From IMG/VR virus record IMGVR_UViG_3300034196_000067, positions 108,796-172,795 of that record: a DNA stretch of 64,000 bases; one strand, given 5' to 3'. The stretch is from a virus. The notes beneath the pieces are model-generated. The model was not told the origin of the DNA. It was given only the letters and a program-made list of their open reading frames with translations, and ran no database searches. Positions 27,967 to 29,952 of the stretch are shown here, piece by piece (the first letter of the stretch is position 1; each line of letters opens with the position of its first letter). Position numbers and translations under genes: made by a program.

Positions 27967-29952
27967 GTGGGGAAACAAAAGCCCGGACTCCCTCTCTTTC
28001 TCGACAAGGTGAGCATGGTATCGACTCCCAAGAAAGAGGGGGAGCCGGACTCCCTAGGGAGCCCAGTGCCCTCCGAGCCGTTCATGCTTTATTTCGACGC
28101 CCCGGCCGGCAGCGCCATCTCCCTCCTCAAGAAAGAAAAAGATCTCTCATACGCAGACGCCCTCTCCCTCCTCAAGAAAACTGTCAAAGAGTTCCAGAAG
28201 AACACCCTGCTACTCAAAAAGAACCAAGAGTTCTTTGCGGCCTCCTCCGCTTCGACCTTCGAAACCCCTCACTCTCCAATCTCTATGAACGAACGAGTGT
28301 TCAAGATCTACCAAAGTGAGTCGTACCCGAGCAAGGTCGTCGTTCTGTGTAACGGTCTTTCCACGTACATAGAAGAGGGACTCCTAACCTCCTCGCCTGA
28401 GTCTATTACAGAGGTATGGAAAGACCTTCAAATCGTCTTCAAGAAAGAGCTAGAGGGCGTTACAGAACGAGGTCCGCTCCTCACATCGATCTACAAGTTC
28501 TCCTTTAAGAAGAAAACGACATACGTTCACTTGGCGATAAAGCCCAAGATCTGGGAAAGCTCGTTGACCAGTGAGCAGAAAACACTGGCCACGAAGATCA
28601 AGGCTCTGGCTAAGCTGCCCCTGGTCCAGCACCTCTCAGATGATGAGGTAATGACCTTCTACCACGCCAAAGCACAAGAGGTCTTCCTCTCCATAGTGCC
28701 GCCGATCACGGCCCCGATCCCACAGCCGCCAGGAGAGTCCCTCACAAAACTGCACAATCAGATCTACGAACTGAAAGTGTGGATTGCCACAGTGCGGACA
28801 GCGCAGACTTTGCGAATGCATGTCGGGGGCTGCGCCTCGGACCTTCTAAACACGAAGGCCGAGGTTTTTCAGCAACAGATCGATCTGGCGCAGCAGAAGA
28901 TGCAAGACATGCACTTCTCGACCCTCTCCAAGATAGAAGCGGAAACACTTGCGTATAAGGTCAAATACGATCCATACGCGATGCTTTACGGTTCTCTTCC
29001 TGTGACACCGTTGAAGTACGTCATGGCGCCTGCGTGGCTTCCTGGACAGTCGCCATACGAAGAGAGCCATCCTCCTCTAAAACCGCTCTCTTCCGAGGAA
29101 ACGGCCAAGTTCAAGGAAGATTTGGAGCTCCTAAAAAAGCAGCTATACGCTGCTCTTGGAATCCCCGCCGACCTCCTAGTCGCCTACTCTAAAGAGCCGG
29201 CAGTCCTGACCACCGTCCCGGAGGTCCTGAAATTACTGAGGGAGATCAAGCTAGGTAGAAAAGACGGACTGAACCTCGCACAGGCTTGCTCTCTATTCAA
29301 TGAGTTTCTCCCAGACAACGTCAAGAGCGTGACGCCTGGTGTTCTAGCAGGTCTTTTGGAAGAGGAGCAGGACAGCCCGACGTTGATCGCGTTCGCCGAG
29401 TCAGTGATCGCTCCTGACCTCAAATGGGTTCCCGTCGCATGGTTTCCAGAAGAGTCCGCAGAAGCAACAGAGGCCGTAGAAGTCACCATCACCGGCCTCA
29501 CGCCGGAGGAGGCAGAGGACTTGATAAAGACATACTCGAAGAAAAAGAAGGACCAAGTGTTGGTTGCGAAAACGGTGCGAAAGGACCTCGGGCCCAAATC
29601 CAAGCCCGTTCTGGAATGGTCGTTCGCATCTTCTTCGACTCAGGTGAGCGGGAAGCCGGTTCAGTACACGACCATGCTTCATGAAGACGGAACCCTCTCC
29701 TGCAACTGCCCTGGCTGGATCCTCGGCTCGGCGAAGAGCAAGATCGGCCGCTTCTGCAAGCACACCAAGGCCCTCGAAGAAGAAGCCGGCAACGTCTACC
29801 AGAAGTGGACGAAGGGCATTCCTCTGGGGGAGGAGTACACAGTCAAAGACACGAAGACCGTGGAGGTCTCTGACGTCAAGCCGGGAACGAAGTTCCTCGC
29901 CACTTCCGGTACCACAGTCGTCTTCAAGGCCAAGCGCATCGTCGAACTCTAG
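27967..29952 (+). CDS. large Lys-rich protein with C-terminal SWIM zinc finger, ends in -KRIVEL
   Basis: GTG start after AGGAGG; CNCPGW...CKH SWIM; internal SLLKK repeats; the 5' two-thirds are AT-richer than the window. Confidence 0.6.
   Translation: MGKQKPGLPLFLDKVSMVSTPKKEGEPDSLGSPVPSEPFMLYFDAPAGSAISLLKKEKDLSYADALSLLKKTVKEFQKNTLLLKKNQEFFAASSASTFETPHSPISMNERVFKIYQSESYPSKVVVLCNGLSTYIEEGLLTSSPESITEVWKDLQIVFKKELEGVTERGPLLTSIYKFSFKKKTTYVHLAIKPKIWESSLTSEQKTLATKIKALAKLPLVQHLSDDEVMTFYHAKAQEVFLSIVPPITAPIPQPPGESLTKLHNQIYELKVWIATVRTAQTLRMHVGGCASDLLNTKAEVFQQQIDLAQQKMQDMHFSTLSKIEAETLAYKVKYDPYAMLYGSLPVTPLKYVMAPAWLPGQSPYEESHPPLKPLSSEETAKFKEDLELLKKQLYAALGIPADLLVAYSKEPAVLTTVPEVLKLLREIKLGRKDGLNLAQACSLFNEFLPDNVKSVTPGVLAGLLEEEQDSPTLIAFAESVIAPDLKWVPVAWFPEESAEATEAVEVTITGLTPEEAEDLIKTYSKKKKDQVLVAKTVRKDLGPKSKPVLEWSFASSSTQVSGKPVQYTTMLHEDGTLSCNCPGWILGSAKSKIGRFCKHTKALEEEAGNVYQKWTKGIPLGEEYTVKDTKTVEVSDVKPGTKFLATSGTTVVFKAKRIVEL

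Follow-up and report, generated by a model that had tools for sequence, protein, structure and literature searches.

The locus and its operon

The gene studied here lies at 27967..29952 (plus strand) of a 64,000-nucleotide (nt) stretch of viral DNA, hereafter the window (IMG/VR virus record IMGVR_UViG_3300034196_000067, positions 108,796 to 172,795). Its 661-amino-acid (aa) product belongs to the long forms of a SWIM zinc-finger family and is the phage's own greatly lengthened copy of a small SWIM-like zinc-finger protein. The gene is part of a compact unit that starts with an AAA+ ATPase gene. The features of the locus, including open reading frames (ORFs) and a major vault protein (MVP) homolog, are the following.

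25795..27414, plus strand: AAA+ ATPase of the classical clade, Cdc48/VCP-D2-like, first gene of the unit (Pfam AAA 2.6e-24 and AAA_lid_3; phrog_8638 1e-116)
27487..27957, plus strand: DUF1257 protein, directly 5' of the target (Pfam DUF1257 1.9e-5, 25.2 bits against a cutoff of 22.2)
27967..29952, plus strand: target gene, 661 aa, GTG start (ORF and translation)
29965..30165, plus strand: DUF2997 protein, directly 3' of the target (PF11211; phrog_23133 2e-8)
30189..30218, plus strand: terminator-like hairpin closing the AAA-DUF1257-SWIM-DUF2997 unit (12-bp stem, 9 G-C pairs, T-rich tail; pattern match only)
30259..35768, plus strand: inserted block between DUF2997 and DUF3150, consisting of a 103-aa ORF, the MVP homolog, RtcB and three small ORFs
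30668-33223, plus strand: MVP homolog (MVP_shoulder 1.6e-27, Vault_3 3.5e-10)
33339-34520, plus strand: RtcB (4.7e-122)
35765..36799, plus strand: DUF3150 protein, fifth recurrent partner, split from the unit by the MVP-RtcB block (Pfam DUF3150 8.4e-7)

The ORF at 27967-29952 is one real gene that is coding throughout. When codon log-likelihoods were computed with a model derived from the genes of the window itself, frame 0 scored positive and the other five frames negative in every 300-nt segment along the gene, and this continuous signal identifies it as a single genuine gene. The possibility of two fused genes or of a frameshift was rejected because of this single, continuously coding frame and because the N-terminus is homologous to those of the relatives. 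The sequence GGAGG is located 7 nt 5' of the GTG start codon and overlaps the stop codon of the DUF1257 gene. Together with the hairpin after the DUF2997 gene, this overlap suggests co-transcription, and the target is predicted to be translationally coupled to the upstream DUF1257 gene.

The closest solved structure to the ATPase domain was the D2 domain of VCP/Cdc48 (PDB sequence match 1.4e-53), and the NCBIfam model CDC48/FtsH/PAN was matched at a sub-threshold score. Based on the D2 match, the ATPase is predicted to be of the unfoldase/segregase type.

Across dozens of loci the SWIM gene was linked to the AAA, DUF1257, DUF2997 and DUF3150 genes in three different gene orders. In type I, found in the window and in the related loci L002, L008-L012, L015-L020 and L095-L099, the order is AAA, DUF1257, SWIM, DUF2997, (DUF3150). 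In type II (L048, L057, L073, L084 and many short contigs) it is DUF3150 ... DUF1257, DUF2997, SWIM, AAA, and in type III (L004-L006) AAA, DUF1257, DUF2997, an additional gene, a DUF3150-like gene and SWIM. A linkage that survives such rearrangement is strong evidence that the five genes form a functional unit. The DUF neighbors of the target are also those of the cyanobacterial DUF1257 (Ycf35)-DUF2997 pair, the association of DUF2997 with DUF1257 (ycf35) in cyanobacteria having been recorded in a review (PMC4284462).

The DUF3150 gene, separated from the unit in the window, adjoins DUF2997 in L002, L008, L009, L010 and L096. The MVP-RtcB block was present between DUF2997 and DUF3150 in L095, L097 and L098 and absent from this position in L002, L008, L010 and L096. 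In the relatives as a whole, MVP genes were observed at two positions, 3' of DUF2997 (L095, L097, L098) and 5' of AAA (L009, L020), and MVP was absent from L096, a close relative of L009. Bacterial MVP homologs are said, in a passage of a preprint that refers to Burroughs & Aravind 2016, to share operons with RtcB.

Protein architecture and the SWIM-like family

The 661-aa protein was divided into the parts listed below, using family alignments and an AlphaFold2 (AF2) model, whose confidence is given as the predicted local distance difference test (pLDDT). GC stands for guanine-plus-cytosine content and GC3s for GC at synonymous third codon positions.

27967..28056, plus strand: conserved N-terminal peptide, residues ~1-30, MGKQKPGLPLF...TPKKEGE, counterpart of M..KKSGLPPF..EL.KLLG in other long forms
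28057..29211, plus strand: lineage-specific variable middle, residues ~31-415, Lys/Leu-rich, Arg-poor and the lowest-GC part (GC 0.523, GC3s 0.65)
28105..28242, plus strand: helical hairpin predicted by AF2, residues 47-92, with SLLKK/SLLKK/LLLKK motifs and a 22-nt repeat
29212..29412, plus strand: helical sub-domain, residues ~416-482, containing LNLAQACSLFNEFLP, common to a subset of the long forms
29479..29556, plus strand: VEVTITGLTPEEAEDLIKTYSKKKK helix and Lys-rich linker, with nearly invariant L/T/E columns (AF2 helix 513-526)
29605..29847, plus strand: SWIM-like zinc-finger core, residues 547-627, with putative ligands C579, C581, C597 and H599 at nt 29701-29763
29917..29949, plus strand: conserved extreme C-terminal tail, ...VVFKAKRIVEL-COOH, with R657 invariant

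An earlier note, made from the letters of this DNA alone, had pointed out a CxC..CxH finger and a KRIVEL tail, and both are borne out. CNCPGWILGSAKSKIGRFCKH forms a CxCx15CxH motif at residues 579-599 (C579-N-C581-x15-C597-K-H599), and the four putative ligands were invariant in the family alignments A1, A2 and A3. AF2 folded residues 547-627 into three strands and a helix, with pLDDT mostly 80-92. The Pfam SWIM model (PF04434) scored the C-terminal domain of the target at 14.5 bits (E 0.026), which is under the gathering threshold of 19.6, and it matched 15 of 25 family members at E <= 1 (best 0.0098), all sub-threshold. The finger is probably best termed SWIM-like, as the signature is present and the Pfam gathering score is not reached. 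Weak matches to a Rieske-type cluster were obtained for 10 of the 25 members (best E 0.06); this assignment was rejected on account of the single invariant His and the SWIM spacing of CxC..CxH.

Compared with the SWIM fingers of MuDR transposases, MEKK1, SWI2/SNF2 ATPases, ZSWIM proteins and Sws1, the target has the same CxCxnCxH signature with invariant putative ligands, and strands followed by a helix carrying CxH are predicted for it. It differs from them in its sub-gathering score, in the lack of fusion to a helicase, transposase or kinase, and in its new genomic context. Its finger is moreover embedded between an upstream W.F.SS strand and a YKKWKKGE helix with a conserved tail.

The family was delineated with phmmer, run exhaustively against 1.84 billion cluster representatives, which was needed since word-indexed searches with the whole protein or its C-terminal 228 aa returned only the target gene and two relatives. 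The 148 matches all fell on residues ~416-661, with the single exception of P0141, and most covered only the finger core (residues 543-620). The best matches were proteins of 312-1062 aa that have the N-terminal peptide and a C-terminal module of ~165 aa in common with the target. In this module a VELTLTGLTPEEAE helix is followed by a Lys-rich linker, the finger W.FESSS..NG.P..Y.TQLNEDGTLSCNC.GW..GSAK...GRFCKHT, the helix YKKWKKGEPLG, a variable spacer and a terminal FKAKRIVE[ILV]. The target fits the family pattern W.F.SS...Y..L..DG..SCNC.GW...R.CKHT plus basic-hydrophobic tail with 232 bits to profile A1 and 122 to A3. Its AKRIVEL aligns with the family tail, which is kept at the extreme C-terminus throughout the family and varies by group: [FY]x[KR]R[IV][IV]E[ILV] in type I, LGHRKFA[IV] in type II, and KYGRFIALD or YERKMDI in others.

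The 661-aa form is far from typical in size: in the phage and metagenome loci retrieved, 82 family ORFs had a median length of ~112 aa. A short form is made up of a K/R-rich, basic N-terminus just ahead of the finger, the finger itself and a conserved tail (IRFNRVIEI, KYGRFIALD, IKYERKMDI, LGHRKFAV). The ancestral form is a protein of ~100-135 aa with a basic N-terminus, the beta-strand/SWIM finger, a short YKKWKKGE helix and a basic-hydrophobic C-terminal peptide. The conserved parts of the long forms are the ~30-aa N-terminal peptide and the ~245-aa C-terminal part, that is, the ~165-aa SWIM module preceded in some relatives by the helical sub-domain. The N-terminal motif is common to P0002-P0010, P0012, P0017 and P0022, and the N-termini of the relatives matched each other in BLASTP. 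The helical sub-domain shows the pattern ...AQAC..FN..LP... in a subset of the long-form relatives; the phmmer alignments of P0002, P0003, P0004, P0012 and P0017 start at residues 416-446, and pLDDT was 69-84 over residues 421-480.

Between the conserved ends, the variable middle (residues ~31-415) was modeled as mostly helical with low pLDDT, and 297 of the 661 residues of the protein had a pLDDT below 50. The helices of the hairpin (47-58 and 62-92) were predicted with pLDDT of about 83-91. No credible homolog of the middle was found by phmmer among the representatives, the only match being a weak one to P0141 (E 5e-4), and BLAST gave no match to residues 31-415 in the related loci or relatives.

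Pfam (above threshold), PHROGs, NCBIfam and PADLOC contained no family for the target protein, and no significant match to its structure was obtained among solved or viral predicted structures. PDB sequence searches with the family profile and the N-terminal 494 aa gave only noise (uL4 E 0.28, UDG E 0.17). Residues 511-528 scored sub-threshold against a SHOCT-like domain (PF22746; 13-15 bits against 27, E 0.017-0.07), as did one of 25 members. Among GenBank phages, tblastn with the C-terminal module and megablast with the 8.7-kb locus both came back without a match, and the pattern search used on GTDB genomes gave no confirmed relative. The SWIM domain type is already known, while the architecture of the family, its tail, its partners and its hypervariable long forms are undescribed in the searched libraries and literature.

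A second SWIM finger had been noted in the minus-strand ORF 44318-44908 and linked with the target. The ORF indeed carries such a finger (CGCKNWQYRRSVDGGSCKH, CGCx14CKH, Pfam SWIM E 0.094), but it does not belong to the same unit, and its 19 bits to the family profile of the target mark it as a separate, distant relative. An equivalent ORF is conserved on the minus strand a few kb 3' of the module in L009 (15038-15625), L010 (13665-14075) and L012 (18478-19038), at 14-19 bits.

Some variable middles of the relatives carry fragments that resemble family-A DNA polymerases and that are absent from the target. VHDELIYE is similar to polymerase motif C (Pfam DNA_pol_A E 0.0017 in P0004, residues 163-199) and KAMSFGAMYG to motif B. 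The short motifs NPCxE[VI] and ERTPxCCPYA, also absent from the target, recur in long-form middles. Polymerase-like or recurring fragments were found across P0003, P0004, P0005, P0007, P0009, P0012 and P0017 (loci L095, L097-L099). The polymerase-like fragments may be domain relics or mimicry.

Base composition and evolution of the variable middle

The first ~1.4 kb of the gene had been described as AT-richer and Lys-rich in surroundings of ~60% GC. The contrast was confirmed, with the surroundings measured at 58%: GC of the first 1400 nt was 0.526 against a window mean of 0.580 (standard deviation, sd, 0.020 over 1400-nt segments; z = -2.7), and only 0.16% of such segments were lower. The lowest-GC 1400-nt segment of the 64 kb begins at 28151, inside the gene, and a local minimum of 0.49 was located at 28201-28650. 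Lys made up 10.7% of the residues compared with a 44-gene mean of 6.8% (sd 2.6), and Arg, at 1.4%, was the lowest among the 44 genes. About half of the GC deficit could be attributed to amino-acid composition (composition-expected GC with pooled codon usage 0.562; gene mean 0.586) and the other half to weaker third-position GC, with GC3s of 0.65 against a mean of 0.72 (sd 0.07), rank 18 of 80 ORFs. No other gene of 200 aa or more had a less typical synonymous codon usage (z -6.8).

The near-repeats around SLLKK were also verified. LLKK is present four times, compared with an expectation of 0.1 in shuffled sequences, and none of 20,000 shuffles reached four. Two A(I/L)SLLKK copies are encoded by a 22-nt direct repeat (28113-28134 and 28158-28179) with 21 of 22 positions identical, which hints at growth of the insert by small duplications. 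No longer internal repeat was detected by self-BLAST, and an internal duplication beyond the 22-nt repeat was rejected, as residues 66-90 against the TPEEAE helix gave only -3.5 bits, which is not significant.

In the earlier note these features were taken to indicate a recently acquired or fast-evolving cargo or defence protein. A recent horizontal acquisition of a cargo, defence or anti-defence gene with foreign composition would account for the lowest-GC 1.4 kb of the window, for the atypical synonymous codons and for a variable middle without homologs. However, the SWIM gene occupies the same operon slot, with homologous N- and C-termini, throughout the closest clade; when its presence or absence was followed in the relatives, it was present in all of them. 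The native codon signal runs in frame everywhere, GC3s is within the range of the genes, half of the GC deficit comes from the amino acids, and no flanking repeats, mobility genes, integrase or att-like features were seen around the target. A stronger compositional outlier, at 39001-40000 (GC 0.676), is found elsewhere in the window. The earlier note had named GC and codon usage in the normal range of the genome as the outcome that would refute its reading, and half of this outcome was observed: GC is at the window minimum, codon usage stays within range.

A defence role fared no better: PADLOC-DB 2.0 held no family for the target, DUF1257, DUF2997, DUF3150 or MVP, the AAA+ ATPase gave only generic AAA matches of the IetA/TRIP13 type, and the element itself is a huge phage. 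The target is thus predicted not to be a member of a known defence system. Overall, we regard the acquisition scenario as highly improbable.

The fast-evolving half of the suggestion, on the other hand, was upheld. Identity of the closest clade to the window was 64-70% for the AAA+ ATPase, 68-72% for the ligase-like protein, 76% for RtcB, 55-65% for both DUF1257 and DUF2997, 61-64% for DUF3150 and 49-53% for MVP; it was 45-51% for the SWIM C-terminal module, and the SWIM middle was not alignable. The lengths of the SWIM proteins in this clade were 312, 447, 661, 762, 965, 966 and 1062 aa. The same slot, the homologous ends, the native codon signal and the lack of mobility signatures together indicate that the low GC is not due to foreign origin. 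The insert is native sequence that is rapidly turning over, and its low GC is best explained as a side effect of a stretch evolving in place that is rich in Lys, Leu and Ser, poor in Arg and weakly adapted in its codons.

A comparable arrangement is known from the internal proteins of phage T4, which have a conserved capsid-targeting sequence and hypervariable bodies. The target likewise combines a short conserved N-terminal peptide with a body that diversifies rapidly within a phage lineage, but its C-terminal ~245 aa are conserved as well and its operon is non-structural.

The insert could be neutral disordered or coiled filler grown by slippage and duplication or, alternatively, a substrate or regulator that the ATPase unfolds. 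The large low-pLDDT fraction, the 22-nt repeat with its suggestion of small duplications, the weak codon adaptation and the extreme length variation among relatives would fit neutral filler. Yet the frame has been kept open over 1.2 kb in the target and up to 2.7 kb in relatives, short motifs (NPCxE, VHDELIYE, ERTPxCCPYA) recur in the variable regions of the relatives, some pairs retain partial similarity (P0004/P0007, 30% over 362 aa), and parts of the insert, such as the hairpin at 47-92, are predicted with confidence. We consider this explanation unlikely.

A possible adaptor of the AAA+ ATPase

Unfoldases of the Cdc48/VCP type are known to rely on adaptor proteins that carry zinc fingers and short docking motifs. 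Here, a Cdc48-like ATPase is accompanied by a protein with a strictly conserved terminal peptide and a variable body, and we therefore tentatively propose, at a little under an even chance, that the target is an adaptor or cofactor of the ATPase whose variable insert sets specificity. The SWIM module and the C-terminal tail would attach the protein to the AAA+ hexamer or to its small DUF partners, and the insert would recognize or retain whatever the ATPase remodels during infection, be it a protein or a ribonucleoprotein (RNP). Contacts with nucleic acid may in addition be made by the finger and the Lys-rich linker.

The cofactors of Cdc48/p97/VCP (Npl4 and adaptors with VIM, VBM or SHP motifs) offer a general parallel: the target, too, would be adaptor-like beside a VCP-D2-like ATPase, and it combines a zinc finger with a conserved short terminal peptide of basic-hydrophobic character and with a variable region as a possible source of specificity. 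No sequence or fold similarity between these cofactors and the target was detected, so that the likeness is one of analogy, and the Cdc48 system has no counterpart of DUF1257, DUF2997 or DUF3150 of the phage module.

Several points weigh against an adaptor. The proposal draws on gene neighborhood and analogy, and our literature searches on DUF1257/DUF2997, DUF3150 and Ycf46 in connection with phage returned no functional information on the module. In Rhizobium phage RHph_I4, a cultured phage with the same AAA+ gene upstream and the same DUFs, the order is AAA, an additional gene, DUF1257, DUF2997, with nothing between DUF1257 and DUF2997 and no SWIM-family match throughout the AAA-DUF1257-DUF2997 locus. 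Judging from this locus, the finger would be dispensable to the AAA-DUF1257-DUF2997 core and an accessory part of a more widespread core. Finally, the insert may be largely a disordered spacer with no specific binding role, because AF2 confidence is low for most of it.

The neighborhood of the gene also allows for a different function. The target could be a nucleic-acid-binding factor of an RNA-repair/translation island, one that binds RNA or DNA (e.g., damaged tRNA or rRNA) and acts with RtcB, ligase, tRNA and transfer-messenger RNA (tmRNA) functions instead of serving as an ATPase adaptor. The surroundings are indeed dense in RNA-related genes (42 tRNAs, tmRNA, nucleotidyltransferase, ligase-like gene, Rv2179c-like exonuclease, RtcB and MVP), the target is Lys-rich, a basic K/R-rich stretch precedes the finger in the short forms, and SWIM was first proposed as a DNA-binding or protein-binding module. 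The constant neighbors of the family, however, are AAA, DUF1257, DUF2997 and DUF3150, not RtcB or tRNAs; many loci have the module with no RtcB or MVP nearby, and no nucleic-acid-binding domain was detected in the target by Pfam, PDB or fold search. Nucleic-acid binding by the target, as also suggested in the earlier note, is possible and compatible with the finger, the Lys-rich linker and the RNA-repair/translation neighborhood, while this explanation as a whole appears rather unlikely to us.

The MVP gene suggests another partner. The long form could be a partner or cargo of a vault-like MVP shell, its N-terminal peptide and insert having arisen with MVP as a tether to the MVP assembly. Of the five long-form loci that reach sufficiently far, four had MVP directly 3' of the operon (the window, 661 aa; L095, 1062 aa; L097, 966 aa; L098, 965 aa), and no MVP was present within 10 kb in the short- or mid-length-form loci L002, L010, L012 and L096. 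All of the long-form loci belong to one clade, though, and the correlation may reflect a single event of ancestry. There are also counter-examples: L008, with a 312-aa form that has the N-terminal motif, carries DUF2997 followed by DUF3150 and no MVP; MVP is found upstream in L009, whose protein has 251 aa, and in L020, where the ORF is no longer than 432 aa; and L096, a relative of L009, lacks MVP yet keeps a 266-aa form. No similarity to vault minor proteins was detected, TROVE, vWA and PARP being absent (Pfam, E <= 0.1), and there was no fold match. We judge a vault tether to be very unlikely.

Returning to the adaptor proposal, it can be extended to a picture that we offer as speculation and think improbable. 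The huge phages would encode a five-part remodeling machine made of the Cdc48-like ATPase, DUF1257, DUF2997, DUF3150 and the SWIM adaptor, the last being its exchangeable specificity subunit. In one clade this subunit would have turned into a hypervariable 'targeting arm', shaped by an arms race, by which proteins or RNPs of host or phage are brought to the unfoldase. The substrates might link to the neighboring MVP shell and to RNA repair by RtcB. That such a machine would be a phage-encoded programmable segregase with no described counterpart is an equally doubtful part of the same picture.

As an entry to the five-gene module and to the biology of phage MVP, the gene is of more interest than for its unusual composition. 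The analysis defines, around a Cdc48-like ATPase, an undescribed and widespread module of phages and environmental contigs, in which the SWIM protein would be the likely specificity component. In one clade of huge phages the SWIM gene, which adjoins genes for RtcB and for a prokaryotic vault protein, is a site of especially high turnover in both length and sequence. Should the adaptor idea be true, the variable inserts would point to the targets of the ATPase during infection, and the association with MVP could offer a way to approach what the vault proteins of bacteria and viruses do. Should it prove false, the gene would still serve as a clear illustration of a 'foreign-looking', low-GC segment produced by rapid evolution in place and not by transfer.

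The surrounding phage genome

The 64-kb window is part of a huge-phage genome, as indicated by its 42 tRNA genes and tmRNA, the PHROG matches and the related IMG/VR and metagenome contigs of 118-204 kb. The tRNA genes lie at 790-18143 (plus strand) and cover nearly all amino acids, one tRNA-His (2676-2746) being called with the anticodon ATG, and the full-length tmRNA is located at 37132-37510 (plus strand, 114 bits). Such a tRNA array together with a tmRNA is typical of huge phages. At gathering thresholds, Rfam gave no noncoding RNA near MVP/RtcB other than tRNAs and the tmRNA. The window is densely filled with small ORFs and gave several PHROG matches; across the tRNA array the ORF list includes spurious ORFs that overlap tRNAs. 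The syntenic relatives encode RNR, rIIB-like and Cpn10 genes.

Upstream of the AAA+ ATPase gene lie a ligase-like gene, DUF4419, YpsA/SLOG, an Rv2179c-like exonuclease and a methyltransferase gene, and the order ligase-SLOG-methyltransferase-AAA is kept in L002, L012 and L097-L099. The positions of three upstream genes are the following.

4506-5468, plus strand: nucleotidyltransferase (phrog_388)
21115-22104, plus strand: DUF4419 protein (3e-65)
22130-22756, plus strand: YpsA/SLOG protein

An acyl carrier protein (ACP) gene at 36814-37089 (plus strand; NCBIfam NF002148, ACP subfamily, 83 bits against a cutoff of 71) is located directly 5' of a terminator-like hairpin, which is followed by the tmRNA. 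The highest-GC kilobase of the window, 39001-40000, is farther from the mean of 0.58 than the target gene; it overlaps a 336-aa ORF (38463-39473, plus strand) that has several CxxC pairs, no Pfam or PHROG match and no tandem repeats. Inside the tRNA array are a second AAA+ ATPase gene (7108-8598, plus strand; phrog_10440 1.4e-111) and a gene for a 338-aa coiled-coil-like protein (8813-9829, plus strand), and these two genes show the strongest codon bias of the window, with third-position GC of 0.88-0.89.

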